The notes: generated from the letters alone by a model not told the origin. A DNA stretch of 64,000 nt from Alphaproteobacteria bacterium (GCA_045605805.1 JAZUQR010000010.1:32001-96000), one strand, 5' to 3'; positions 11,171-45,157 are shown, counted from the first letter of the stretch. Translations and numbers: made by a program.

Positions 11171-11246
<76 letters not shown>

Positions 11247-11419
11247 TGTGATAAAGCCCTCTTTCAAATGAGGGCTTTTTCTTTTAACTGTAAGGTTTTC
11301 GCTGAGTCCAATAATGGCAACATCAAAAAATGCTAAAAATCGAGAATTATCGGACTCTTAAATCAAAAATAACCCCTATCGATATGGCAATAGAGGTTAG
11401 AAACTAAAGAAATTTCAAT

Positions 11420-11950
11420 TCATAATACAATCCACCAACGTTGAATAATATGATTTGGATTCTTGGGGTCTTCTTTTTCTGATTCAAGTATTCCCCCATT
11501 TTTTTGGATTACTTTTTGAGAAGCAATATTGTCTTTATAACATGTTATTAAAATTTTCTTTTCTTTTCTTATTTTATAAAGTTCCAAAACTTGTCTCAAT
11601 GCTTCGGTTGCATATCCTTTTTTCCGTTCTCTTGGCTTTATATAATAGGCAACATGCCCTAATCTTTCAAAATAATCGCCTGTAATTTTATACCGCATAT
11701 CCAAAGTACCAACAATCACTCCACTTTTCATGTCTAATATCCAATACAGACACGAAGGAACATCTCGTGGGTGAATGTTGATACCTTGTTCTCTGTTTTT
11801 TAATCTCATATACATTGTGGAATAATCCTCATCGGGACGATATGCGTGTCCCAATTCAGAAACCTCATTAGCACACTTTGCTTCATTTAATAAATCAATA
11901 AAGCTATCTTGCCATTTAGGTTGAGGATGTATCAATTGTATATTACTCAT
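11420..11950 (-). CDS. GNAT family N-acetyltransferase (cassette cargo)
   Basis: GHVAYYIKPRERKKGYATEAL, ILITCYKDNIASQKVIQKNGG. Confidence 0.9.
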   Translation of the reverse strand: MSNIQLIHPQPKWQDSFIDLLNEAKCANEVSELGHAYRPDEDYSTMYMRLKNREQGINIHPRDVPSCLYWILDMKSGVIVGTLDMRYKITGDYFERLGHVAYYIKPRERKKGYATEALRQVLELYKIRKEKKILITCYKDNIASQKVIQKNGGILESEKEDPKNPNHIIQRWWIVL

Positions 11951-12051
11951 TATTTATGGGAACTCCTAAAATTTTGTGCATAACACCAGTTGCACTTATT
12001 ATTACAAGAACGATTGGTTGTAAACCAAACAGTAGAAGGAATAATTTCCAT
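11950..12051 (-). pseudogene. 33-aa radical SAM N-terminal fragment (MEIIPSTVWFTTNRSCNNKCNWCYAQNFRSSHK)
   Basis: CxxxCxxC-Y motif, AGGAGGTG RBS, stop overlaps GNAT start (TAATG); too short for the ORF track. Confidence 0.7.
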
Positions 12052-12316
12052 TTGACACCTCCTATCGTCTAATGGTGTAACAAAAAAGTATCAAAATGTC
12101 AAACTATTTTATTATTCAACATATTTTTTGTAGTTTTTCTTTTAATTCTTCTGTAATAGTGGGCCGATAAGCGCAAAGCAGCCCGCACCATGTGATAAAG
12201 TTCTCTTTCAAATGAGGGCTTTTTTTATTTCAATATCAATTTGCCTATATTTTTTGCTTGATTTTGGGAAAGATTCGGGGCATACTCAAAGAAAACCAAA
12301 GTATGGGAGGTGGCTT

Positions 12317-12934
12317 GTGTCTTTATCTCGCTTGGAGGCGGAAGGCCTGATTGAAATCTTAAAACAGAAAGAATTGAGTTTAGGGAGAGCTCCCAACACT
12401 TGGTACACTTTTCACAATCATGTTTTTGGGGCGGCGCAAGTCGCCCAAATTTTATCCGAAAAAATAGACGGGATGAATCCGGATGAAATGTATGTTTTGG
12501 CTTTACTGCACGATATTTCCAGAACAGAAGAAGACAGAGAACAACGCTTTCATGGCATTTTAGGATATGAAAAATTAAAAGACATTGATGAAAAGGCGGC
12601 ACGGTCTGCGCTGTCACACATGTTTGTGTTTCATCAGCTTCCGGATTATACCGTATGCGCACCCATGTTTTATCACAAAAAAGAAGATTATGATTTTGTG
12701 GCCAATTTTTTAAGCAACACCCACCTCAGTGATGAAGATTTATTGATTCAACTGGCCGATTCTTTGTCTAACAAATATGGCTTTGTGACGATTGACCAAC
12801 GCTTAAATGAATATGCCAAACGCCATCCAACGGCCGACTTACAACCGATTTATGAAAAAGCTGTACGCTTAAAAAATTACTTTGATGACAGAATCGGAGA
12901 AGATGTGTACAAGGTATTACATATATCTGTATAA
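12317..12934 (+). CDS. HD domain protein (probable GTG start at 12317)
   Basis: H...LLHDI...HGILG...LADS motifs; GGGAGG RBS. Confidence 0.8.
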   Translation: MSLSRLEAEGLIEILKQKELSLGRAPNTWYTFHNHVFGAAQVAQILSEKIDGMNPDEMYVLALLHDISRTEEDREQRFHGILGYEKLKDIDEKAARSALSHMFVFHQLPDYTVCAPMFYHKKEDYDFVANFLSNTHLSDEDLLIQLADSLSNKYGFVTIDQRLNEYAKRHPTADLQPIYEKAVRLKNYFDDRIGEDVYKVLHISV

Positions 12935-33299: not shown

Positions 33300-33503
33300 A
33301 TGTTGTCAGGAAAAATTAAATGGTTTAATTACAAAAAAGGTTATGGTTTTATTGTGCCGGATGAAGGCGAAAAGGATGTGTTTATGCATATCACTGCTTT
33401 GCACGAAGCCGGTTTGCGTCGCATTGACGAAGGCCAAGAAGTCACCTTTGAATTAAAAGAAGAAAACGGCAAGACCTGTGCCACGAACATTGCTTTGAAA
33501 TAA
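33300..33503 (+). CDS. cspA: cold-shock protein
   Basis: GKIKWFN.KKGYGFI, VFMH; long AT-rich 5' region. Confidence 0.95.
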   Translation: MLSGKIKWFNYKKGYGFIVPDEGEKDVFMHITALHEAGLRRIDEGQEVTFELKEENGKTCATNIALK

Positions 33504-33521
33504 ATGTTCTTTTTCTTTTTT

Positions 33522-33549
33522 ATCCCACCTTTTCGGGTGGGATTTTTTT
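33522..33549 (+). terminator. intrinsic terminator after csp
   Basis: ATCCCACC-TTTTCG-GGTGGGAT-TTTTTT. Confidence 0.85.
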
Positions 33550-33552
33550 ATT

Positions 33553-33870
33553 GACTCTTTTGGGTTTATTTGCCTTGACAGGTGCTGTCCTTATGGCACA
33601 ACATTCGGACAAAATAATACCTGTTGTTTAGACGGTGTCTGCGCCAAAAGTGACACATTTTTTTGTGCATCAACAGATGAAACCGGTCCATGTCAGATGT
33701 GGCAAATCTGTGCCTTTTCTCATTCCGGTTCTTCCATTATTGGGGCAATCAATGCAACAGGCGTTTGCAATCCAAAAACAGAAGCTGTCTGTACAGAATT
33801 AGGCTTTGTTTGGTGTGCTGGGGCTTGTTATGAAGAAAGTACTGTGTGCTCTGAGTCATTTTATCCAATG
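33553..33870 (+). pseudogene. start-less Cys-rich reading-frame fragment
   Basis: open frame DRCCPYGTTFGQNNTCCLDGVC...GVCNPKTEAVCTELGFVWCAGACYEESTVC lying between two terminators, with no upstream start or RBS. Confidence 0.5.
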
Positions 33871-33902
33871 AAAATCCCCGACAAAGCATCGGGGATTTTT
33901 TT
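33871..33902. terminator. intrinsic terminator
   Basis: AAAATCCCCGA-CAAAGCA-TCGGGGATTTTTTT. Confidence 0.8.
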
Positions 33903-33910
33903 ACTTTTCT

Positions 33911-33997
33911 TTATTTTTTTTCTTTTTTTTCGCCTTTGGATTTACCACCTTTTTGCGTGCCGCATCCACAGCCACATCCGTCTAATTTTTCTGTCAT
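33911..33997 (-). CDS. 28-aa peptide MTEKLDGCGCGCGTQKGGKSKGEKKEKK
   Basis: AAAGGAG RBS 6 nt upstream, TTGACA further upstream, terminator directly downstream; too short for the ORF track. Confidence 0.6.
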   Translation of the reverse strand: MTEKLDGCGCGCGTQKGGKSKGEKKEKK

Positions 33998-34092
33998 TTT
34001 GTCTCCTTTCAGACACTGATTTTGTGTCTGTTATCATATAAAATCGTTTTTTTTACTTGTCAACACAGACTTTTTTTGCTATCTTTAAGGAT

Positions 34093-34476
34093 ATGAAATA
34101 TATTTTACTTGGGCTTGCTTGTTGTCTTTTTTTCGGATGTGCTTATCACAATCCGTTAGACAAGGCTGATTTTCGTTTTCAAACATTGAATGCGCCCCCT
34201 TATATTCTTTCCGGTTGGTATCGGGTGAATCAAGCGGGTCAGCCTTTAACTGTTTATGTGGAAAAAGAACAGATGGATTTGGAACGCAGAAAACAAGCCG
34301 TTGCAGATAAATCGGCCAATGTGGCCTATCTTGGTCGGCCCTGTCAATACTTTCAAACACCTATTTGTCACGAGGCGTTAGAGGCACAATCTGTTGAAAA
34401 CGCCCTTCAAAAGGGTATTTTACAACTTCAAAAAAAGGCTGCCACTGAAACGGTTGTGGTGAAAGGATTAGAATGA
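34093..34476 (+). CDS. hypothetical lipoprotein (resembles a shortened alpha/beta-hydrolase-like lipoprotein)
   Basis: lipobox FFGC; LTVYVE and NVAYLGRPCQY motifs. Confidence 0.6.
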   Translation: MKYILLGLACCLFFGCAYHNPLDKADFRFQTLNAPPYILSGWYRVNQAGQPLTVYVEKEQMDLERRKQAVADKSANVAYLGRPCQYFQTPICHEALEAQSVENALQKGILQLQKKAATETVVVKGLE

Positions 34477-35423
34477 AAAAAGTATGGGTTTTGGCTGATG
34501 ATCGGGCGGGCAATGTGAATCAATTGTTGGGCATTGCCGAGGCGTTGGGGTGGCCCTATGAGCGCAAAGAAATCCGCTATAATAAATGGGTGCGGTTGCC
34601 AAATTGGCTTAGAGGGCACACCTTTATTGGCCTTGATAAAGCCTATCAATTAGCTCTTATGCAAGATTTTCCGGATGTGCTTTTAAGTGCGGGGCGCAGA
34701 AGCTATCCTATTGCTCGGGCCATTAAGCACCTTTCAAAAGGAAAGTGTAAGATTATTCAGCTGATGAATCCTTTGAACAATTTAGGGGATGCCGATTTAA
34801 TTGTTTTACCGTTTCATGACAATTGGCGGGGCAAAGCCGAAAATGTGGTTCAAATGCTTGGTACACCTCATCGGGTCACTGCCCAAAAACTGAGCTTGGA
34901 AAGACAGCACTGGCAACAGGTGATGAAGCAATATCCCCCAAAACGGTTAAGTTTATTTGTAGGCGGGGCAACCAAAAACAAGCCGTTTTCCATTGAAATG
35001 GCTGATGATTTGATTCGGGCGGTGAAAGAGTTGAAACCAGCTTCTGTATTGGTAACAACTTCCAGACGCACACCCTTGGATATTGTTCATCATCTTAAAA
35101 CGCATTTACCCAAACCTTATTTTTTCTATCAATTTGGGGATGAAGGTGAAAATCCTTATTTTGGATTACTCAGCTGGGCGGATATGATTCTTGTGACGGG
35201 CGATTCTATGTCTATGTGCACCGAATGTTGTGCCAGCGGTGTGCCCGTTTTTATTTTTGCGCCCGATGGGATGGTCAGCGCAAAACATAAACGCTTTCAT
35301 GATACCCTGTTTCAACATGGTTTTGCGGCTCCTGTGGGGGGGGAAGCTGTGTTGGCTCATCCGCCCCTGAATCCTGCCACTGAGATTGCAGAACGCATTC
35401 AAGCGTTGTTTGAAAAGAAATAA
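34473..35423 (+). CDS. ELM1-family (mitochondrial-fission ELM1-like) protein
   Basis: WVLADDRAGNVNQ, TTSRRTP, NPYFGLL, VTGDSMSMCTE. Confidence 0.88.
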   Translation: MKKVWVLADDRAGNVNQLLGIAEALGWPYERKEIRYNKWVRLPNWLRGHTFIGLDKAYQLALMQDFPDVLLSAGRRSYPIARAIKHLSKGKCKIIQLMNPLNNLGDADLIVLPFHDNWRGKAENVVQMLGTPHRVTAQKLSLERQHWQQVMKQYPPKRLSLFVGGATKNKPFSIEMADDLIRAVKELKPASVLVTTSRRTPLDIVHHLKTHLPKPYFFYQFGDEGENPYFGLLSWADMILVTGDSMSMCTECCASGVPVFIFAPDGMVSAKHKRFHDTLFQHGFAAPVGGEAVLAHPPLNPATEIAERIQALFEKK

Positions 35424-35467
35424 TTACTTGCTTTTTTATGCTTTTTTGGATATAATGATTTTTATCA

Positions 35468-35544
35468 GCGCCTGTAGCTCAGCTGGATAGAGTGTTGCCC
35501 TCCGAAGGCAAAGGTCGTGAGTTCGAATCTCGCCAGGCGCGCCA
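35468..35544 (+). tRNA. tRNA-Arg(CCG)
   Basis: GCGCCTG/CAGGCGC acceptor stem, TTGCC-CTCCGAA-GGCAA anticodon arm, GTTCGAATC, CCA. Confidence 0.96.
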
Positions 35545-35561
35545 AATAAAAAAAATAATGC

Positions 35562-35590
35562 TTGCATTTTACAATAAAGTTGTGTATAAT
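35562..35590 (+). promoter_or_regulatory. sigma70 promoter of tRNA-Gln
   Basis: TTGCAT-N17-TATAAT. Confidence 0.65.
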
Positions 35591-35610
35591 GTGTGCTATC
35601 CAAGTTATCT

Positions 35611-35685
35611 TGGGGTGTCGCCAAGTGGTAAGGCAACGGTTTTTGATACCGTCATTCGTTGGTTCGAATCCAGCCACCCCAACCA
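35611..35685 (+). tRNA. tRNA-Gln(TTG)
   Basis: TGGGGTG/CACCCCA acceptor stem, ACGGT-TTTTGAT-ACCGT anticodon arm, GGTTCGAATCC, ends ACCA. Confidence 0.96.
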
Positions 35686-35915
35686 AACCGCACATAACGC
35701 CAATTATTGGTGTTTTTTCCTTTATTTTACAAGCACTTTTATCAGCTCGGAATAACCTTTTTGAAAAATAGCTAAAAAATATCAATTCCGAACCGGCACA
35801 TAAAATTTTCCTTTAAAATCAATAGTGAGTCGTTGGGAAAATTTACCAAGCCAAAAGTGGCTAAAATTTGAGGTTATCAGATTTTTAGCCTAGTACAAAC
35901 ATATCGAACCTGAAA

Positions 35916-36467
35916 TTAATGACACAATGCATCGTGACCAGGGTAATAAGTAAAATCCTCTTTGACTTGACCAACTATATTAATTCCATATGCTGTTTTT
36001 TCATCTTTTTTGTCTCGAGTCCAGGGACCAACACTGCCAATACTCGTTGGATTCAATTTTTCATTTATTTGCATTATCAAACTTTGTTCAGAACACCTTC
36101 CACTGGTGGGACATCCAAGTTCCTTTAAACTAAGTAATTTTTTTCCATATAAAGAACAAACATTTTCGGCTGATTTTAAATCAAATGCATCCCTAATAAC
36201 AATATATTCGTCTTTGCCACTTTTTATAACTGTACCTTCACTATCCATTTTAGAACAAGTTCCTTGAGGTTTAACTTGATAAACTTTTGTGTTTCTATAA
36301 CGACAATAACATTGCCCTTTAGAGCAAGTTTCGCCATTTTGATTTCTTTTTGAAATACAATCTGAATTCTCTGTGCAACTATCTCCTAAACGGGACGTAG
36401 CTGCCTCAGAGACGCTAATACAGAGTAGAGAAACACAGAAACAAGTTGAAATTATAATTTTTTTCAT
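35916..36467 (-). CDS. secreted Cys-rich hypothetical protein (cassette 1 cargo)
   Basis: AAGGAG RBS, signal peptide MKKIII..., many Cys. Confidence 0.75.
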   Translation of the reverse strand: MKKIIISTCFCVSLLCISVSEAATSRLGDSCTENSDCISKRNQNGETCSKGQCYCRYRNTKVYQVKPQGTCSKMDSEGTVIKSGKDEYIVIRDAFDLKSAENVCSLYGKKLLSLKELGCPTSGRCSEQSLIMQINEKLNPTSIGSVGPWTRDKKDEKTAYGINIVGQVKEDFTYYPGHDALCH

Positions 36468-36530
36468 TGGTTAGTCTCCTTTTTCTTTTCATTATACTTT
36501 ATAAAGAAATATATTTCAACTCTAAATTTC

Positions 36531-36670
36531 AGCTCGGAAATTGCACAACGAGTCCAGCCAAAACAGACAAGTCGCTATTTTTAGCGACTTTTTTATGATT
36601 TTACAATCACTTACACCGGTCCGTGTACAGCGTTTTTCAAAAAGCTCTTTTTTCAGCCCTACACTGACTT
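36531..36670 (+). repeat. cassette junction repeat, copy A
   Basis: AGCTCGGAA..CCAGCCA, hairpin AAGTCGCTA/TAGCGACTT, TTTTACAATCACTTA, GGTCCGTGTA...TACACTGACT. Confidence 0.88.
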
Positions 36671-36691
36671 TTATAAGAAGCATTTAGTAGT

Positions 36692-36720
36692 TTGACATTT
36701 CAAATGAATTATGTTAGTCT
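36692..36720 (+). promoter_or_regulatory. sigma70 promoter inside cassette 2
   Basis: TTGACA-N17-TAGTCT with TG extension. Confidence 0.6.
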
Positions 36721-36741
36721 ATAAAAATAAAAGGAGAAGGA

Positions 36742-37521
36742 ATGATTAGGTACTACTGTAGTGGATTTGATGTACATAATGCCTTTGGACATGGTTTGGG
36801 TGAGATGTTCAAATCAGAATTAAAAGATACTAGGAGTATTGTCTATATTCCTGGCGGTTCGGACAAAATTGAAAAAGTACAAACGAAATATGTTCCCACT
36901 TTTACCAATTATTTCGGTAATGTGGGAATTAAATTTGATCAAGTAAATATTTTTACTCCCAATATACAACCAGAACAAGCAGCTAAAATGTGTGAAAATG
37001 CCAGCTTTATTGTTTTGATGGGCGGTTGTCCCTTTAAACAAAAACAGCTGTGTGAAAATTTGGGAATTATGCAACAACTGAAAGATTATAAGGGGATTAT
37101 GGTGGGTATGAGTGCGGGGGCTATGTTGATGTCAAAAAATATTATAATTACCCCATGTAGTGCGGAATATCCAGATTTTCACATAGAAGATGGTTTAAAT
37201 CTAGATGGGATTTCAATCTATCCACATAATAATACTTCAAATGTGAACTATCCAGATGAGTTAGTCGTAGGAGATGAAACGTATAAAAAATCGGATTTGA
37301 TTGAGGCTGCTCGCCAATGTGGTCCATTTTATTTGTTGCAAGATAACCCCAGAGAAAATGGAAAAACAGATGTCAGCATTATTAAGTCCACCAATGGAAA
37401 AATTGACTTTTACATTGAAAATGATGGAAAAATCTGGATGGTTGATAAAGATATAAAACCTATTACAGATTTTAAGAAGACACTTTATCAACGTAAAATT
37501 AGTCCGTGTATTGCAAGATGA
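36742..37521 (+). CDS. peptidase S51 (PepE-like, class I glutamine amidotransferase fold), cassette 2 cargo
   Basis: YIP, LMGG.P, GMSAGAM nucleophile elbow, IYPH. Confidence 0.8.
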   Translation: MIRYYCSGFDVHNAFGHGLGEMFKSELKDTRSIVYIPGGSDKIEKVQTKYVPTFTNYFGNVGIKFDQVNIFTPNIQPEQAAKMCENASFIVLMGGCPFKQKQLCENLGIMQQLKDYKGIMVGMSAGAMLMSKNIIITPCSAEYPDFHIEDGLNLDGISIYPHNNTSNVNYPDELVVGDETYKKSDLIEAARQCGPFYLLQDNPRENGKTDVSIIKSTNGKIDFYIENDGKIWMVDKDIKPITDFKKTLYQRKISPCIAR

Positions 37522-37832
37522 CCCTAGCCAAACCGTGCAAGTCGTCAGAAATGGCGACCAATTCCAACATCAATTCATTCTGCGTTGCCACTTGAATTCA
37601 TTGTGTTTCATTGCTTTACGCATAAAAACTTGCCACTGGCAACTTTTTATTTGCGCAGTCTTTATTTTACAATCACTTATACTGGTCCGTGTACAGTGTT
37701 TTTCAAAAAGCTCTTTTTTCAGCCCTACACGGACTCAAAATCCCAAAAAGCCTTATTTTACAATGCTTCTGTCTTGGGATGTCAATTTTTCATCCCAGAG
37801 AGAGGAAGATGTATTCAGACTCAAATTTGATG
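37501..37832 (+). repeat. cassette junction repeat, copy B (with ~97-bp insertion)
   Basis: AGTCCGTGTA..CTAGCCA, terminator, TTTTACAATCACTTA, GGTCCGTGTA...TACACGGACT, GGGATG..CATCCC; closely similar to copy C. Confidence 0.9.
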
Positions 37833-37965
37833 TAAAAATGGGAAATTTTTTATGCCCCATAACCTAAATTTTTTGTAAAATCAAGGTTGACTATAAAAAA
37901 CAAGAATAAAAAGCCCCATTTCAAGAGAAACAGGGCATTATTTTTTTGTAAAGAAAATTTGTTAA

Positions 37966-38568
37966 CTATTCTCGACCACCATTAGCTAACATTTTCTGCA
38001 TAGCTACAATTTTTTTTACCCCTTCATCTTTTGTTTGAACCGCAATCTTATAAAGTTCTGGATTGACATCTTTCAAAGAATCAACCAAGATCATGCGTGT
38101 TTGGAAATATTCTTGATGCCAAGACAATGGTTTCTTTGGATTAGGCTTATCTCTGGAGGTTTGAAAATTCATAATTTTTTCAGCTAACAAAATTTCTTGT
38201 GCCTGAGGAGACAGTGTTTTTGCCCATTCAGCTTTTTCTTCCCATTGCTCTTTCTTTGTTTTATTTTCGTCTTCTGGCTCTGTCATCAACTCTTGAATAA
38301 CAGACAAAACTTTTGGACCTGCGATTTGCTTAATTTGTTCCGGCGTTAAAGGAGATACACCTTCAGCAATTCGTTTTGTCTCAAAACATTTATGTAAAAG
38401 AGAAGCGCATACAGCAACTTCTTTGTCTTCGTTATCTAATGTAGAATGTTTTTGTACTAATTCTGTCGTTCCTTTAACTTGGTCCAACATAACCATACCA
38501 CCGCCATAGGTAACACCTTCGTGTAAACGCGTGGCATGATACAAACACTTGTTTTCTAATTCTGCCAT
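37966..38568 (-). CDS. small alarmone hydrolase (Mesh1/SAH)-like protein with degenerate HD motif, cassette 3 cargo
   Basis: overall SAH pattern (A..LH.G, ASLLHK, G.KV..VI.EL.T, LAEKI.N, EYF); promoter TTGACA-N17-TACAAT at 38606-38634. Confidence 0.65.
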   Translation of the reverse strand: MAELENKCLYHATRLHEGVTYGGGMVMLDQVKGTTELVQKHSTLDNEDKEVAVCASLLHKCFETKRIAEGVSPLTPEQIKQIAGPKVLSVIQELMTEPEDENKTKKEQWEEKAEWAKTLSPQAQEILLAEKIMNFQTSRDKPNPKKPLSWHQEYFQTRMILVDSLKDVNPELYKIAVQTKDEGVKKIVAMQKMLANGGRE

Positions 38569-38662
38569 TTTATATTCTCCTTTAATTTTAATATACTATA
38601 AAGAAATTGTATAATAAATGGAAAGATTTGTCAACATTTTTTACTGAGAATACCTCTAAATC

Positions 38663-38897
38663 AGTCCGCGTATTACCAGACTTCTCCCGCCAAAACAGAT
38701 AAGTCGCTAGAAATAGTGACTTTTTATTATTTTACAATCACTTATACAGGTCCGTGTACAGTGTTTTTCAAAAAGCCTGTTTTTCAGCTCTACACGGACT
38801 CACATTTCAAAAAAGCCTTTGTTTTCAATGCTTCTGCCTTGGGATGTCAATTTTTCATTCCAGAGATTGTTGAATGTATTCAGACTGAGCTTAGATG
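38663..38897 (+). repeat. cassette junction repeat, copy C
   Basis: AGTCCGCGTA..CCCGCCA, AAGTCGCTA/TAGTGACTT, TTTTACAATCACTTA, GGTCCGTGTA...TACACGGACT. Confidence 0.9.
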
Positions 38898-39033
38898 AGA
38901 AAAAAGTGTTTCTATAACACGCTTATTTCTATTACCAGTTCTGGTGGCCTATTTCTTTATTTTTTTCTTGCTAAAAAAGCACACACATGCTACCCTATCC
39001 GTATATCAATAATAATTATTTACGGATAGAAAA

Positions 39034-40341
39034 ATGACAAAATATCGTATCATTGGCAATATGACCGGAAATTCTATGGATGCAATAGATTTAGTTTTAA
39101 CAGAATTTGACGGTGATATAATGCGAGACATTTGTACATACACAAAACCTTATTCTAAAGATATGCAGAATAAAGTTGAAAGTTTGCGTGCAAAGGTCTT
39201 TAATAAAACATCCACAGAGATAGAAACCCTTCCAGAATTTACTTCTGTCCATGATGAATATATTCGCCAAATTGCAGAATGTATTAATGAAATGTGTGAA
39301 AAATACGACATTGACAAAAACAATATTGATGCAATAGGATTTCATGGCAAAACACTAGACCATAATCCGCCATCAAAAGCTTGTTTAGACGGAAGTCAAC
39401 CTTATACTTTGCAAATCGGTTCAGGACAAATGTTGGCCGATTTAACAGATATAGCGGTTGTTTATGATTTTCGTTCAGATCCATTGATGGCCGGCTTTGA
39501 TGGCGCACCACTGGTTCCACCCCATAATGCTCATATTTCGGCAACAGAGGGAGATGGTTGTTATTATAATGGAGGTAACACATCAAACTTTGCTTTGGTA
39601 GTTGATGGCTCTGCACTAATAGGCGCAGATGCCGGACCTTTTAATGAATATACTGATAATTATATTCGCAACCATACCGATGAATCTTTTGATAGAGATG
39701 GAACGTTCGGCAAAAAAGGAATATTAAATAAAGCTTTACTGCAAGAACTATTTAATTTTGGTCGCAAATATTATGAAGCCCCTTTACCAAAATCTGGTGA
39801 TCCCGCTTATTATTACAAGGGACAAATTTTTCAATATATCAATCAGAAAAAATTTAAGTTTGAAGATGTTGTTCATACGTTTGAATATTTTGCAGCTTAT
39901 ATCGCTGTACAAGCTTTGAGTTTAATACCTAATGATATAAAAATACCAAATAAAATGATTTTGTTTGGTGGAGGCTGGAAAAACCCCATAGTTAAAGAAA
40001 CTTTTGAAAAATTACTAAAAGGTCAGAGATATGTTTTGCCGGAACATCAAGAACAGTTTACTAAATTGTTAAATCGCTTTTCTAGTTGTCCAGAAGTTCG
40101 CAACTCAACTTTTGGTGATTATATGGAAGCCAGATTGTTTGCTGATTTAGCTCGTTACAAATTAGATAATAAAGCGTGGGAAATTCCTGAGATAGTTAAA
40201 TCAAAAAAATCGGTAATATGCGGACGGGTTGCAAAACCAAATAAAGATCGTAAAGAATATAACGATAGAGTTAATCGTGCAGCTAAAGGTTGGCAAAATT
40301 CTAATAATGTTAAAAATAAAATAGTAACAATAGAATATTAA
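39034..40341 (+). CDS. anmK: anhydro-N-acetylmuramic acid kinase-like protein, cassette 4 cargo
   Basis: GNMTGNSMDAID, GFHGKT, TLQIG, DFR..GAPLVP, DAGP.N, GGG. Confidence 0.8.
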   Translation: MTKYRIIGNMTGNSMDAIDLVLTEFDGDIMRDICTYTKPYSKDMQNKVESLRAKVFNKTSTEIETLPEFTSVHDEYIRQIAECINEMCEKYDIDKNNIDAIGFHGKTLDHNPPSKACLDGSQPYTLQIGSGQMLADLTDIAVVYDFRSDPLMAGFDGAPLVPPHNAHISATEGDGCYYNGGNTSNFALVVDGSALIGADAGPFNEYTDNYIRNHTDESFDRDGTFGKKGILNKALLQELFNFGRKYYEAPLPKSGDPAYYYKGQIFQYINQKKFKFEDVVHTFEYFAAYIAVQALSLIPNDIKIPNKMILFGGGWKNPIVKETFEKLLKGQRYVLPEHQEQFTKLLNRFSSCPEVRNSTFGDYMEARLFADLARYKLDNKAWEIPEIVKSKKSVICGRVAKPNKDRKEYNDRVNRAAKGWQNSNNVKNKIVTIEY

Positions 40342-40477
40342 TTATAATTCGTTTTTTACATCCAATATTTAGTAATTTTCTTGTAAAAATATAAAGGATT
40401 AGAAAGGTAGAACATAAAAAACAATGTGTTACAACCAATCATAATTTAGCTCGTGAATTGTGCACTGTCCCCAGCCA

Positions 40478-40638
40478 AAGGAAAGGCCTCCTTTATGGGT
40501 GTTTTTTTGTTGGGTTGAGGGGGTGAGAGCCAACGAATGGTTGGTTCGGTCACGAAGCGAAAGCGCAGTAGACACCGAAGGTGGTCCCGAAGGGATAAAT
40601 CGGCAAGCTGATTTACAATCCAGCCACCCCCCCAGCCA
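40478..40638. repeat. tRNA-Gln-derived REP-like hairpin element
   Basis: inverted tRNA-3' copy followed by GTTGGTTCG-[68-nt hairpin cluster]-AATCCAGCCACCCCCCCAGCCA. Confidence 0.75.
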
Positions 40639-40813
40639 AGTTGTGAGAGTCGTCAAATATGGCGACTTTTTCTTTTGCTTCTAAGTGCTTATTGTGGCTC
40701 GGAAGAAGATTTTGGAAAAGACCTAGAAACAAACTGTCTCAAACTAAAAACAATTTGCTTTCAATATGTTGTATTTTGTGCCATTCTCTAATCCAAAAAT
40801 AGCAAAAATTCAA

Positions 40814-41371
40814 TTATCTCTTTTTTAAATCAGAAAATCTTCTATAAACAAGCATCTCTAAATTAGGATGATTTCTGCTTATACCCATTTCTTGACCGTC
40901 CCAAATATGACCTTGAGCCTCAGCAGCTTTTCTAGAACGTGTATTTTCTTTTTGAATTTTTAAGATAACAGAATCTATTCCATTTTCAAACAACACTTTT
41001 TCAAAAGCTGTTGTTGCTTCGGGGCCATAATGTTGCCCCGCAAATTGTTCAAAAAGCATAACACCGAGCTCAATACTTTTGGGATTGTTTGGATTATCAG
41101 GATTAAATGCTCCGATTGTTCCCATCAATTCATTTGTTTCTTTATTCCAGATGCCGTAATTTATTTCTTTTTCTTCTGATAACACCATTTTAATAAAAGT
41201 TTCTTCTTTTTCAAATGTCATCGGTTCTTCAAAATGAGGTAAAAATCGTCCTAGCCATTCTCTTGACTTGTTAATAGAATCCACTAATAACTGTATATAT
41301 TCTTTATCCAGTGTATGTTTTTTCAGGACAATGCGTTCAGCTTCTATTTGTTGTGGTAAAACTAATTTCAT
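40814..41371 (-). CDS. GNAT N-acetyltransferase, RimL/RimJ-like
   Basis: IEAERIVLK, SREWL..FL, ELG...GQHYG.EA, ENTRSRKAAE. Confidence 0.82.
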   Translation of the reverse strand: MKLVLPQQIEAERIVLKKHTLDKEYIQLLVDSINKSREWLGRFLPHFEEPMTFEKEETFIKMVLSEEKEINYGIWNKETNELMGTIGAFNPDNPNNPKSIELGVMLFEQFAGQHYGPEATTAFEKVLFENGIDSVILKIQKENTRSRKAAEAQGHIWDGQEMGISRNHPNLEMLVYRRFSDLKKR

Positions 41372-41443
41372 TTTTACAGCCTTTCAGAGATTTTCTATAA
41401 TTTAACATAGTTTTTCAGTTGATCAAGTTTCTTTTAGGACTTT

Positions 41444-41671
41444 TCAACAATCTATGCCATTTTCGGTGATTTGGCATTGTTCCACGACAGCCCCAACCGC
41501 TTGCTTAAAGTCATAGTTAAAAGAAGATATTTTATCCGAAATGATGTTTTCAATTGTCCAACGCAAATCAAAATCATCAAACGCCCAAGCCACTTTTACC
41601 ATACCGGACATCAGGCTGACAGTGGTATATACCACACAAAATCCCAAGAAAATAGCTTTTATTTTTTTCAT
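41444..41671 (-). CDS. small hypothetical protein with N-terminal hydrophobic segment
   Basis: AAGGA RBS before MKKIKAIFLGF. Confidence 0.5.
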   Translation of the reverse strand: MKKIKAIFLGFCVVYTTVSLMSGMVKVAWAFDDFDLRWTIENIISDKISSFNYDFKQAVGAVVEQCQITENGIDC

Positions 41672-41684
41672 TTTTTCTTTCCTT

Positions 41685-42224
41685 TTATCTTTGAGTTTTA
41701 TACACTTTTTTCCCATTTGTGACATAGTCTTTTAACACTTGTTCCCCCGCCTCTGTTTCAAGGTTGCCATAGACAGTTATCCCTCGGTTCTTAAACTCGG
41801 TCAACCACCGTGGCTTAAAGCCTTCATCAAAGCCGGTTATTTCCTCTACACGCTTTGAAGGGACACCGTAATAGACCTCTTTGATACCAGACCACAAAAT
41901 CCTACCCAAACACATCATACACGGTTCGGCTGGCACATAAAGGGACAAATTATAAGGCGATAAATCATAAGTTTTCAAAACTTCTTGCGCTTTTTTAATG
42001 GTATTCATTTCGGCATGATGATGGCTGCATTGTGTTTGAACAACGGTATTCGCCTCTTTGGCAATCAAGTGTCCGTTTTCATCATACACTGCGGCCAAAA
42101 ACGGCCCATAGCCTTGTGTCATCATTTCTTTTAATTCTTGTTGAAGGGAGGCAATGATTTGGCAAGCCTGATTGACTTTTTGTGGATTTATTTTTTCATT
42201 CGCAATTATTTTTTGTGTGGACAT
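41685..42224 (-). CDS. nucleoside/guanine deaminase (CDA superfamily)
   Basis: GPFLA, HAEMN, EPCMMC. Confidence 0.9.
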   Translation of the reverse strand: MSTQKIIANEKINPQKVNQACQIIASLQQELKEMMTQGYGPFLAAVYDENGHLIAKEANTVVQTQCSHHHAEMNTIKKAQEVLKTYDLSPYNLSLYVPAEPCMMCLGRILWSGIKEVYYGVPSKRVEEITGFDEGFKPRWLTEFKNRGITVYGNLETEAGEQVLKDYVTNGKKVYKTQR

Positions 42225-42415
42225 TTTTATCTCCTTTTTTCATCATAAGAAAAAAGCGATTATTTGTAAAGTCTTATTTGAAGCAAAAGCCTTTGTGCAT
42301 TTTTTTCTTGATTTTTCTTTTGCTTTTTGTTATACTGTTTTTGTTTTGAAAAGGTTTAACATTCAATTCCCTTTATGGAATGCCTTTTTATAATTTACAT
42401 TTTTTTTGAGGCTTT

Positions 42416-42868
42416 ATGAAACAGAACAATCACAATCGTCAAAACAGACGCTTTAATAACAGAAATAATCGTCCCACACAAACCATTTATCGCAACACCT
42501 GTTTGGATTCTTCCGGACCTGCTGGTAAGTTGCGTGGAACGCCCTTACAACTCAACGAAAAATATGTGGCTTTAGCCAAAGATGCCGCCACTCAAAATGA
42601 TATGATTTTGGCTGAACAGTTTCGTCAATATGCCGATCATTATATGCGTTTACAAAACATTGCCATTGAAAATGAAAATGCTTTGAAGGCTTCAAAATCT
42701 GCCCAACAACAGGCGGGACAAGACTTGCCAAAAGACGAGGATTTGAATGCCAACGCTTCTGTGGAACAGGAAACACAACCGGCAATTCAAGAAGACTTAT
42801 CCGTTCCTGTGCAACAGATGAATGAAATGGCTGAGGTGGCAGCAGATTCTAATCCCGTGTCAGAATAA
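42416..42868 (+). CDS. DUF4167 family protein
   Basis: Asn/Arg-rich N-terminus, DSSGP..KLRG...EKY..LAKDA...AE..RQYADHY.R. Confidence 0.85.
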   Translation: MKQNNHNRQNRRFNNRNNRPTQTIYRNTCLDSSGPAGKLRGTPLQLNEKYVALAKDAATQNDMILAEQFRQYADHYMRLQNIAIENENALKASKSAQQQAGQDLPKDEDLNANASVEQETQPAIQEDLSVPVQQMNEMAEVAADSNPVSE

Positions 42869-43238
42869 CAACCGCACCGGCAATTTTGTCATCTGCCAAT
42901 GACACAGAGGCTTGGACATTATCCCCAAACTTATATTTTAAGCGAGACATCATTTTTTTACTGAGTTTCAACTTTGGGGCACCATTGGTATCATGGCTTA
43001 GAGCCACATCTTTCAATCCGACAAATGATCCAAATCCCGTACCACACGCTTTGGCAAAAGCTTCTTTCACTGCATAATGTTTTGCCCCGTAATTGATTTG
43101 GCCTGTGGTTGATAATTCCTTGACTTCCTTAAACTCGCTTGGGGTGAGCATTTTTTTATAAAACGCAACGCCCCCTTTGTTTATAATGCGCTTAAAATGG
43201 GCAATTTCAACAAGGTCAAGACCCACTCCGACAATCAT
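42849..43238 (-). CDS. acpS: holo-ACP synthase
   Basis: IVGVGLDLVEI, A..YAVKEAFAKACGTG, GAP. Confidence 0.93.
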   Translation of the reverse strand: MIVGVGLDLVEIAHFKRIINKGGVAFYKKMLTPSEFKEVKELSTTGQINYGAKHYAVKEAFAKACGTGFGSFVGLKDVALSHDTNGAPKLKLSKKMMSRLKYKFGDNVQASVSLADDKIAGAVVILTRD

Positions 43239-45157
43239 TTTTTCTCCTTCGTTTCATAAACCCGTTGAACACCTTTACAACTTCGTATTGCATCTAACAC
43301 ATCCAACAGATGATCTTTGCCTTTCACTTTTATCATCGCTTGGGCTTTTGTTTGGCTGTGTTCTTGGGATATAATTGTCATAGATTGAATATCTACTTTC
43401 ATTTTAGACAATTGATTGACAATTTGCCCCATACTTTCGGGATTTGTTTTCCACATAATACTTAATGCAACTACCTGTTTATTGTTGGTTTTATGTGTTG
43501 TGTTCCATTCTACACTCATCCATTTTTCCGTTTGTGTAAAGTACCTTTTCAAAATTGGGCAGTTTCTTTTGTGAATCACCACTTTATCGTTTTCTTTAAT
43601 GGCAATTATTGCATCTTTTTCTTTTGGATGGCACACTGTATCCAATTCATAAGGAATTCCCTCCGGCAAGCCCAAAATCTCGGGGTTCACTTTCTTTTTA
43701 GACCATATTTTTTCGAAAAATGATTCTTTTTTGGGGGCTTTTTCTTCACTGAAAAAGTTTTCCAACAACAATTTGGCATAGGCCGTTGTCACATCTTTCA
43801 ACCAACTTTTTTGAGCCACAATTTTGCTTGTCACTTTGAAGCTCACTTTATCACCATCATTCAGTTTTTGGTTTAATGGCGCTTTTTCGTTGTTGATTTC
43901 CACACCCGTGCATTTTAAGGCCACTTTTGACCCAAGATAACAAGCAAAGTCTAACGCTGTGGCGCCCTGAGGTAAAGAATAGACAATCCCTTTGTGATCA
44001 AAACAAAAGATTTTATTGCGTTCCATATGCAATTTCGCTCGTCTTAAAAATTCGGCCGGACTTTCGGTGTTTGAAATAAGGGTTAAAAACTCTTTCATCC
44101 AAGGCAGATTTTTACCATCATATTTTTCGCCTTGTTTATATGACCAATGGGCGGCCATTCCAAACATTGCTGCTTCTTCCATTTTTTCCGTTCTGATTTG
44201 GATTTCAAGGGGGATTCCTTTTGACGACATTACCGTTGTTTGAAGTGATTGATAGCCGCTGTCTTTTGGAGTGGATATATAATCCTTAAAACGCCCCATA
44301 ACGGCACGATATCGTTGATGGACAAGCCCCAAAGTTTTATAACAATCTGGGATATTCTTTGTAATGATTCTGATTCCCAAAACATCAAAAATGGACGACA
44401 TTTGATTTTGATGCGTTTGCAATTTGTGCCATAATGAATAAGGCATTTTTACACGCCCAATCACACGAGCTTTGATTTTTGCCACACTCAATATCGTTTC
44501 AATTTCCTGAATCAGATTTTGGATGCTTATGTTTTGTTTCTTTTGCAACCCATTTATTTTTTGTGTTAAATTGTTATAGGCTTGCGGATTCAGCACACGA
44601 AACGACAAATCTTCCAATTCTGTTTTGATTTTATGCAACCCTAATCGTTCTGCCAATGGGACATAAATATCCATTGTTTCTTGAGCTTTGCGTCGTTTCT
44701 TTTCTGCGGAACAAATATCCAATGTACGCATATTGTGAAGTCTATCCGCCAATTTGACAAACAAAACACGAATATCTTTACTGGATGCCAAAATCAACTT
44801 TTGAAAGTTTTCGGCTTGACCACTTGCCGAAGATTGCAACTGATAACTTTCCAATTTGGTCAACCCTTGCACCAAATCGGCCACACGTTTGCCAAACAAC
44901 GCTTTGACCGAATCGTATGAAGCCGGTGTATCTTCCACCGTATCATGCAGTAAGGCGGCCATAATTGTTTCGGCATCCATTTTATAGGCTAACAAGATTT
45001 CGGCAACGGCCAACGGATGAATCAGGTATTTTTCCCCTGTTTCTCGTTGTTGATCATAATGCATTTTTTCCGCAAAGATACAGGCTCTGCGTAAGCCTTC
45101 AATATCTGCCTTTTTATCGTATTTCTTAACCGATTCTATCAGCTCATCCGACCGCAT
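43235..45157 (-). CDS. spoT: bifunctional (p)ppGpp synthetase/hydrolase (long RSH)
   Basis: LLHDTVED, KLADRLHNMRT, KDYISTPK.SGYQSL, EIQIRT, TGS and ACT domains. Confidence 0.93.
   Translation of the reverse strand: MRSDELIESVKKYDKKADIEGLRRACIFAEKMHYDQQRETGEKYLIHPLAVAEILLAYKMDAETIMAALLHDTVEDTPASYDSVKALFGKRVADLVQGLTKLESYQLQSSASGQAENFQKLILASSKDIRVLFVKLADRLHNMRTLDICSAEKKRRKAQETMDIYVPLAERLGLHKIKTELEDLSFRVLNPQAYNNLTQKINGLQKKQNISIQNLIQEIETILSVAKIKARVIGRVKMPYSLWHKLQTHQNQMSSIFDVLGIRIITKNIPDCYKTLGLVHQRYRAVMGRFKDYISTPKDSGYQSLQTTVMSSKGIPLEIQIRTEKMEEAAMFGMAAHWSYKQGEKYDGKNLPWMKEFLTLISNTESPAEFLRRAKLHMERNKIFCFDHKGIVYSLPQGATALDFACYLGSKVALKCTGVEINNEKAPLNQKLNDGDKVSFKVTSKIVAQKSWLKDVTTAYAKLLLENFFSEEKAPKKESFFEKIWSKKKVNPEILGLPEGIPYELDTVCHPKEKDAIIAIKENDKVVIHKRNCPILKRYFTQTEKWMSVEWNTTHKTNNKQVVALSIMWKTNPESMGQIVNQLSKMKVDIQSMTIISQEHSQTKAQAMIKVKGKDHLLDVLDAIRSCKGVQRVYETKEKK

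Follow-up and report, generated by a model that had tools for sequence, protein, structure and literature searches.

In the attachment sites of large serine recombinases, attP and attB differ in the distance of the zinc-ribbon motif from the centre, which is 5 bp greater in attP; in the core sites of tyrosine recombinases, the spacing is equal in both partners. Integrons are tyrosine systems with arrays at one site. Tandem units have also been described for the ssrA islands of Dehalococcoides, which are attributed to a CcrB-like serine recombinase and include units without an integrase (PMC3146451). We describe here arrays of small gene cassettes that begin at the 3' ends of tRNA genes in a 64,000-nucleotide stretch of DNA from an Alphaproteobacteria bacterium (GCA_045605805.1, JAZUQR010000010.1:32001-96000), referred to below as the window. 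The junctions in question, at positions 36,531 to 40,477 and at a second tRNA locus, might represent attR-type right ends of mobile, recombinase-less cassettes stacked at tRNA 3' ends, with a serine recombinase acting in trans. We put the probability of this reading at about one in two.

The right end (RE) of a cassette is defined as the 30 nt up to the A of CCA, and the left end (LE) as a conserved 93-nt sequence that follows the terminator. A preliminary description of this DNA listed five junctions where a T-loop-like arm starts a 30-nt segment ending in CCA (36531-36560, 37501-37530, 38663-38692, 40448-40477 and 12161-12190), and 25-nt equivalents in the two adjacent tRNA genes (35661-35685 and 11222-11246). 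All seven segments are present at these positions and begin with the letters given. The fixed geometry also holds in a wider alignment on the A of CCA, which comprises 21 REs, 13 from the window genome (taken by coordinates) and eight from relatives. Two REs of one relative (locus L081) have the motif and the box described below, but a length of 28 nt, and were kept out of the 21-row table; hence the motif starts 30 nt before the A of CCA in 21 of 23 REs, with these two as the exceptions. An additional, 14th RE of the window genome, at tRNA-Pro(GGG), has the 30-nt layout as well. Position -26 is C in every one of the 21 REs and position -29 is G in 18, and a TTGCA-like box is found at -20 to -16 (T 16/21, T 16/21, G 17/21 and C 16/21 at -20 to -17). 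In tRNA genes the matching T-loop C (C56) is at -21, and thus the 5-nt offset is real and constant. The distal motif therefore lies 5 nt further out in the cassette end than in the tRNA, which is the relation of attP to attB in serine systems. From general structural knowledge of the two recombinase families, such a constant offset fits a serine integrase more naturally than it fits a tyrosine recombinase, and the T-arm motif is a putative zinc-ribbon-read element.

How large is the conserved right end? In the array at tRNA-Ser(GCU), two REs are identical over about 33 nt up to CCA but unrelated further upstream and immediately downstream, so the RE is a discrete module of 30-33 nt. The final 6-8 nt of the RE equal the 3' end of the array's own tRNA, be it Gln, Thr, Leu, Met, Pro, Lys or Ser. 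This identity of 6-8 terminal nt in seven tRNA species is also the size of a tyrosine overlap and brings in a first alternative, which we consider unlikely: a tyrosine recombinase in trans (of an as yet unrecognised type, of the DUF6538 type, or XerC/XerD) would use the last 6-8 bp of the tRNA as overlap, and the T-arm mimics and the LE would be accessory or arm-type sites, comparable to those of integrons or a lambda-type attP. A serine prophage of the same genome, considered below, also shares 7 nt with its tRNA, and the short identity consequently does not separate the serine and tyrosine models; the 5-nt difference in spacing between partner sites, on the other hand, is unexpected for a tyrosine enzyme.

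The window genome (1.21 Mb in 31 contigs, 98.85% complete, the window being on contig C10) has 52 tRNA genes, called by ARAGORN and Rfam, and a permuted tmRNA. The larger array of the window is anchored by the tRNA-Gln(UUG) gene (35611-35685, plus strand, CCA at 35683-35685), which would have a role like that of attB or attI; contigs of two sequencing runs join 35685 or 35687 straight to a later cassette. The four Gln cassettes run from CCA to CCA on the plus strand and have one long open reading frame (ORF) apiece; every CCA is followed by a terminator-like hairpin, and this mostly by an LE. Cassette 1 (35686-36560, 875 nt) has its own terminator, an LE at 35712-35803 and a 183-aa ORF on the minus strand that belongs to no Pfam family, and it closes with the RE at 36531. 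Cassette 2 (36561-37530, 970 nt) consists of a terminator, an LE (36586-36678), a Peptidase_S51 gene on the plus strand (36742-37521) and the RE at 37501. Cassette 3 (37531-38692, 1162 nt) has, after its terminator, a repeat of about 100 nt (37559-37655), then an LE (37652-37744), an HD_4 gene on the minus strand (37966-38568) and the RE at 38663. In cassette 4 (38693-40477, 1785 nt), the terminator is followed by an LE (38717-38809) that is part of a left end of about 250 nt, by an AnmK-like kinase gene on the plus strand (39034-40341) and by the RE at 40448. A small unit of 162 nt comes next (40478-40639, plus strand); it is made up of a terminator and a GC-rich structured element of about 120 nt, and its last part copies the 3' end of tRNA-Gln, beginning at the T loop. 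A further terminator and a sixth LE (40640-40752, plus strand, the LE at 40664-40752) precede GNAT and deaminase genes, and no RE was found for the unit that this LE opens.

The second locus has a single cassette. It is anchored by the tRNA-Thr(CGU) gene (11171-11246, plus strand), and the cassette (11247-12190, plus strand) comprises a terminator, an LE at 11273-11365, a GNAT gene on the minus strand (11420-11950) and the RE at 12161. A 45-nt direct repeat (11241-11285 and 12185-12229) covers the terminator and the 6 nt with which the tRNA ends, and repeats of a tRNA 3' end with its terminator are found downstream of many tRNA genes of the window genome. Relative to the RE, cargo genes occur on both strands.

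Several other features of these loci were noted. The repeat at 37559-37655, between terminator and LE, recurs after tRNA-Met (C27) and tRNA-Lys(CUU) (C26), is strain-variable (contig joints 38716 to 37559 and 37558 to 37662) and looks like a miniature insertion element. In cassettes of the Gln type, the conserved left end reaches about 85-170 nt past the LE hairpin (38717-38970 and 37652-37840 in the window, L211:60-320 in a relative) and is 81-91% identical across genera. The box recurs in this extended left end, along with a small hairpin; the extension may represent a promoter, a small RNA, or an additional signal for recombination or transfer. Just past the Thr cassette is an HD-domain gene (12212-12934) that is present in one of 21 genus genomes, the window genome itself, so that the region beyond the recognisable cassette is accessory as well. 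No usable empty orthologous Thr site was found in the reference genomes, the best flank match among relatives being 72% identical; with this best flank and the restricted HD gene, the reference genomes provide no empty-site comparison.

The 17 LE copies of the window genome align over 93 columns. They share a T-rich run, a box that contains CAAG, and two inverted 13-nt arms on either side of a 28-nt loop whose A-rich centre is conserved. The stem covaries, with both sides changing in nine of the 13 pairs; 76.5% of stem cells are paired, a value that falls to 25-37% if the partner is displaced by 1-3 columns, and none of 500 shuffles reaches the observed score. This covariation is reminiscent of attC and is a point in favour of the tyrosine alternative. 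The LE arm is similar to the T-stem and T-loop of its cognate tRNA (nine identical letters in the case of Thr). By inspection, it also resembles the RE motif of its own cassette, clearly so in Gln cassettes 1-3, Gln(CUG), Thr and the first Leu cassette; the match is absent in Gln cassette 4.

With a covariance model of the LE, copies were found in each of the 20 genomes that represent the rest of the genus, in 32 of the 36 others in the family, and in one of 24 genomes outside the family. The number per genome reaches 40, and arrays of three to seven LEs follow Gln, Pro, Met and other tRNAs, seven being the most seen after one tRNA (locus L209). In the window genome, LEs are found at at least nine tRNA species. 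Some units have no RE or a degenerate LE. A pattern scan for the LE across the whole sequence collection, loose enough to give many unrelated AT-rich matches, was used solely for the broad habitat and taxon of relatives; among the matches listed, relatives are labelled as gut or rumen Alphaproteobacteria or as Rickettsiales metagenome-assembled genomes.

Are the cassettes mobile? Evidence comes from contigs of four metagenome runs from four studies (X1, X5, X9 and X19), which were placed on 33500-44500 at 90% likeness; 18-44% of sampled words from the array region are present in 20 of 21 public runs among those listed. These contigs are assemblies, and the shorter anchoring side of a joint is 20-64 nt. 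The conserved flanks of the array are covered throughout, and the interior differs from strain to strain by the gain, loss and reordering of cassettes. Cassettes 1 and 2 are missing together in X1 and X5, where the tRNA end is joined to the cassette-3 terminator (35685 to 37539 and 35687 to 37538, respectively). Cassette 2 is missing as a unit of 971 nt in X1 and X9 (36576 to 37548), and cassette 4 is missing in X9 (38693 to 40503). In a contig from X9 with related cassette-4 cargo, the match to the window ends precisely at 40477, and a different terminator lies beyond. The order of units is altered in X1, X5 and X19 (40630 to 38689) and again in X1 (40479 to 37538). These differences break at CCA; the breaks are localised between CCA and the terminator loop, no finer, and a crossover near CCA fits the data. 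Further joints, e.g. 37659 to 38817 and again 36576 to 37548, fall inside LE-LE or terminator-terminator repeats.

The last joints are what would be expected if the units had no dedicated mobility at all, but were the wreckage of larger elements at tRNA ends whose interiors have been deleted, with shuffling by homologous recombination between the terminators and left ends of 90-260 nt. Larger units with the same ends do exist in two relatives (G021 and G023), many recombinase copies are fragmentary, some units are incomplete at one end or the other as noted above, and the LE persists in genomes that lack candidate recombinases. Yet the 30-33-nt RE is nearly unchanged beside unrelated cargo and across genera (28 of 30 positions between the window and G021), the C at -26 is invariant, the LE stem covaries, and several breakpoints are at CCA, where flanking similarity is minimal, as in the X9 contig that ends at 40477. 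Together, these properties argue for continuing selection on the ends, and decay without mobility appears improbable.

In the scheme we favour, the mobile unit would start at the base that follows a CCA and end with the CCA that comes next, and thus comprise a terminator hairpin, the LE, one or two cargo genes and the RE. Insertion and loss would take place by site-specific recombination within or just after the last few bases of the tRNA. New cassettes would enter at the tRNA and push older ones downstream, in the manner of an integron. The enzyme would be a large serine recombinase supplied in trans, of the clade found by identical REs and tRNA 3' ends in relatives. The tRNA T-arm may represent the distal motif of an attB half-site, about 20 bp from the crossover, and the mimic in the RE the same motif in an attP half-site, about 25 bp out; such an arrangement would yield the fixed 5-nt offset.

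The link to a serine recombinase is found in relatives. The preliminary description proposed a search near tRNA genes for proteins with Resolvase, Recombinase and zinc-ribbon domains, and a check of whether their ends show the 30-nt arm; three relatives have such a recombinase in the vicinity of an RE, intact in one and fragmentary in two. In G021, a member of another genus, tRNA-Gln is followed by a terminator and LE, by a 30-nt RE 22.6 kb on, and then by a terminator and LE again. This RE is identical to that of window cassette 3 at 28 of 30 positions, and the unit has, at a distance of 2.66 kb from it, an intact gene (L212:459-2054) for a 531-aa protein that combines Resolvase, Recombinase and Zn_ribbon_recom domains. 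In G023 and G020, recombinase fragments 90-96% identical to the G021 protein end 50-60 nt before a 30-nt RE, with a conserved spacer in between. The G021 and G023 units have only 1,959 of 22,551 nt in common, which means that the common part is the recombinase-RE block and the LE. The left end of window cassette 4, over about 250 nt, is 87% identical to the left end of the recombinase-bearing unit of G021; with the RE matched as well, the small cassettes share both ends with recombinase-bearing units. More distant relatives of the recombinase (30-39% identity) abut real tRNA genes in convergent orientation, Leu(CAA) in G050 and G017 and Lys(CUU) in G002. By eye, the terminator that overlaps the recombinase 3' end in G050 and G017 is the same as that at the start of unit three in the window genome's Leu(CAA) array.

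Other serine recombinases were seen near tRNA genes. A second clade of large enzymes is found about 0.9 kb after tRNA-Lys genes in two genomes (G014:C57 and G019:C9; loci L215 and L216). These proteins are 45-46% identical to the integrase of the prophage in the window genome and are preceded by two small ORFs, and an inverted repeat like the LE arms is present about 300 nt after the tRNA. Small resolvases occur in the third unit of the Leu(CAA) array and, in G015, abutting tRNA-Leu(GAG), the latter with neither LE nor RE.

The prophage-like element just mentioned (49.6 kb, C8 at about 15.6-65.3 kb) is integrated in the last 7 nt of tRNA-Pro(GGG) and has a 569-aa large serine recombinase near its far end; beyond it are a tRNA-copy unit and an RE-type cassette. 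Serine integrases of this lineage thus use the extreme 3' end of a tRNA. Its reconstructed attP has perfect 12-bp inverted arms (12/12), and the best dyad axis is 7 nt before the end of CCA.

A number of observations weigh against the assignment of a serine recombinase to the cassettes. Scans of 20 proteins encoded in or next to the arrays revealed no recombinase, and the RE-linked enzyme has no homologue in the window genome at E <= 1e-20, so that the arrays of this genome would be either dormant or served from outside. The serine recombinases of this genome are five small resolvases and four large ones, three intact and one broken; two of the three intact ones are only 22-27% identical to the RE-linked enzyme. 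These two (573 aa on C12 and 455 aa on C16, with similar small ORFs downstream of both) have no RE, LE or tRNA nearby, and an RE-like flank is absent for at least one, which suggests elements of another kind. PF07508 is found in 19 of 36 family genomes, but not in the two with the most LEs, G001 (40 LEs, 97% complete) and G015 (24 LEs, 99%), and three others with LEs (G022, which is 100% complete, G042 and G044) have no match to the Resolvase domain. All RE-adjacent copies of the recombinase but that of G021 are fragments, three ORFs separate the G021 recombinase from its RE, and the enzyme could be a passenger of the G021 and G023 units, given how little sequence these share. The right end of the prophage has neither the RE motif nor the box, and its attP has inverted arms, unlike the RE junctions. 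No role is assigned by the serine model to the inverted repeat of the LE or to its two extra copies of the motif. In addition, with short anchors at 90% likeness, some of the contig joints could stem from repeats or from other strains. The co-occurrence of LEs with DUF6538, PF07508 and PF00239 singles out no recombinase; as non-autonomous elements can outlive their enzyme, it is not decisive either way.

The symmetry of the junctions is also a difficulty. That no symmetric arm is seen across the crossover, as had been remarked at the outset, is borne out: at the best dyad axis, positions -30 to -26 are paired in just 1-5 of the 21 junctions. The RE motif is without an inverted partner, and the best inverted match to its 10 nt in the downstream flank averages 5.57, compared with 5.36 +/- 0.16 in shuffles (P = 0.125). 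There is a weak dyad axis between -6 and -5, with an inverted identity of 0.335 in observed and reconstructed element junctions, where the shuffle maxima have means of 0.296 (top 0.324) and 0.307 (top 0.338); the signal is marginal and rests mainly on a TTG/CAA pair and a few inner positions. Measured from this axis, the distance to the motif is 25 nt in the cassette end and 20 nt in the tRNA; the axis itself is one base off the crossover that had been predicted. The idea of a serine integrase, as first put forward, therefore stands in part. The constant offset, the breaks at CCA and the recombinase linked to the RE in three relatives are in its favour; the lack of an inverted partner, of a recombinase in the cassettes and of the enzyme in the window genome, and the marginal dyad, are not.

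Would a tyrosine recombinase do better? The window genome has six matches: a XerD-like, a XerC-like, a 198-aa and a 501-aa protein, and two DUF6538 integrases; none is in the window. The two DUF6538 integrases are 69% identical and lie directly after tRNA-Thr(GGU) and tRNA-Glu(CUC). Such integrases occur in 17 of 36 family genomes, with three and four matches in the two that are richest in LEs. Xer-like genes, two each, are the sole tyrosine recombinases found in G022, G042 and G044, and are the only recombinases found there. Single-site arrays are moreover typical of tyrosine systems such as tycheposons (10.1101/2020.12.28.424599). The DUF6538 islands, however, use another type of junction. 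The one at tRNA-Thr(GGU) (C21:75762-101703) ends about 26 kb downstream with a GC-rich element of about 120 nt and a 19-20-nt exact copy of the tRNA from the T loop onward. There are also just two of these integrases in the window genome, as against the nine or more tRNA species with LEs. The preliminary description held that ends consistently tied to tyrosine integrases would speak against its proposal; beside REs, a serine recombinase was seen three times and a tyrosine recombinase not once.

A second DUF6538 island starts at C7:57026; the integrases are about 590 aa long with an N-terminal DUF6538 domain (loci L024, L025 and L029), and short repeated motifs are found beside their genes. In two relatives, tRNA-Thr(GGU) bears LE cassettes in place of the DUF6538 island. 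The GC-rich element also occurs alone, after tRNA-Gln(CUG), Pro(UGG) and Met and within the small unit of the window (40505-40639 of 40478-40639), with further copies on C25, C30 and C21 (loci L022, L032, L033 and L025). It has two conserved stems and a variable hairpin before the tRNA copy, and in the Gln copies its 5' part repeats the 5' acceptor strand of the tRNA.

Other types of mobility were looked for in the window genome. No integron integrase was found, the Xer proteins scoring 128-130 bits where the subfamily cut-off is 265; this also counts against a tyrosine system of the integron type. A Xer/dif reading was not relied on; the RE has no recognisable second arm. No HUH Y1 transposase is present and the one reverse transcriptase is inside the prophage, and the single-stranded DNA transposon and retro-mobility readings were dropped for these reasons. 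A BLAST comparison of the RE-terminator-LE junction with phage and plasmid collections gave no match.

The RE imitates the 3' half of a tRNA ending in CCA, with a terminator next to it, and the GC-rich element has conserved stems. Might the tRNA-like ends therefore function as RNA, in 3' processing, in stabilisation or in CCA-dependent priming of cassette transcripts? This appears very improbable. The cargo is on either strand relative to the RE, the contig polymorphisms are at the DNA level, and the sole reverse transcriptase belongs to the prophage. Rfam has no family for the RE, the LE or the GC-rich element and matched only three tRNAs, and a hairpin inside the RE was considered and dropped, the complementary registers, judged by eye, differing from one RE to the next.

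A serine recombinase in trans is the preferred explanation. A more specific form of it is offered tentatively, as one that is more apt to be wrong than right: a clade of serine recombinases may read the tRNA T-arm plus CCA as attB and the mimic 5 bp further out as attP, and would so constitute a serine counterpart of the integron with many tRNA entry sites, in which the LE dyad, whose two outer ends both bear this motif, might be a second recombinase-binding site that relaxes or controls directionality. The junction geometry noticed in one window is confirmed and widened to a family-wide system, and the enzyme for the window's own cassettes is inferred from relatives.

What would such a system signify? 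Should the enzyme assignment prove right, it would represent a cassette-array platform independent of the integron integrase, in which each genome offers ten or more tRNA genes as points of entry. The family concerned is widespread and, to judge from the labels of relatives, consists of gut Alphaproteobacteria with small genomes. It would also be a natural case where the offset between attP and attB half-sites can be read straight from sequence, as attB is the tRNA and attP imitates the tRNA. The recognition rule would be testable, and could help to aim serine integrases at conserved tRNA genes. Irrespective of the enzyme, the arrays account for much of the strain-level variation in gene content at these loci, according to the contig evidence. 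No description of such cassettes was found in the literature searched, in which coverage of subscription journals was sparse.

How does the system compare with those already described? Serine attachment sites have two inverted half-sites about a central dinucleotide where the crossover takes place, and only attP and attB recombine, through double-strand cuts staggered by 2 bp. The present system resembles them in that relatives have, by the RE, a recombinase of the Resolvase, Recombinase and zinc-ribbon type, the partner sites share a short identity, and the motif is 5 nt further out in the element; the half-sites would measure about 25 and 20 nt if the weak dyad axis is taken as their centre. 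It departs from them in the absence of an inverted partner to the cassette's distal motif, of a recombinase in cis and of an enzyme homologue in the window genome, in tandem insertion, and in an extra left-end module with two more copies of the motif. Tandem insertion is no objection to a serine enzyme, since the ssrA islands of Dehalococcoides are tandem too. Like the present arrays, these islands and the staphylococcal cassette chromosome (SCC) elements, both with CcrB-like serine recombinases, are tandem and occupy the 3' end of a gene, either for a stable RNA or essential (PMC3146451). In all of them the units are delimited by a short repeat of this gene end and have a conserved motif directly upstream of it, and some units are without an integration module. 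Theirs, however, are islands on a 10-kb scale at one locus with a 20-bp repeat, whereas here the cassettes are mostly 0.9-2.4 kb with one or two genes, are found at ten or more tRNA species, and have a 6-8-nt repeat and a T-arm mimic.

The likeness to integrons is in the mostly single-gene, recombinase-less cassettes, the fixed entry site, the structured and covarying cassette site and the typical cargo (GNAT, peptidases, methyltransferases). In integrons, the attC hairpin is at the cassette boundary with the crossover inside it, and an IntI-type integrase is next to the entry site. Here there is no such integrase beside the entry site, which is a tRNA 3' end; the hairpin is part of the left end, some 65-115 nt away from the junction (its start is about 65 nt past CCA), and not at the crossover; the breaks between strains are found at CCA or the terminator and not at the LE hairpin; and the cassettes have terminators of their own and cargo in either orientation. 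Tycheposons (10.1101/2020.12.28.424599) and other tRNA-targeting integrative elements, Islander-type islands among them, are likewise tRNA-proximal islands formed by repeated integration, in which newer units push older ones outward and partial tRNA repeats remain between units, but they carry their own integrase (910 of 937 are tyrosine recombinases) and displace a longer tRNA fragment. The units of the window have no integrase and a tRNA mimic instead of a tRNA copy. Only 6-8 nt of the tRNA are repeated, and an integrase in cis with a displaced tRNA 3' fragment is not seen; it is the true tyrosine-integrase islands of the same genome that carry the 19-20-nt exact tRNA copy. In its combination of small tRNA-anchored cassettes, T-arm mimic and structured left end, the system differs from serine attachment sites, Dehalococcoides and SCC islands, integrons and tycheposons alike.

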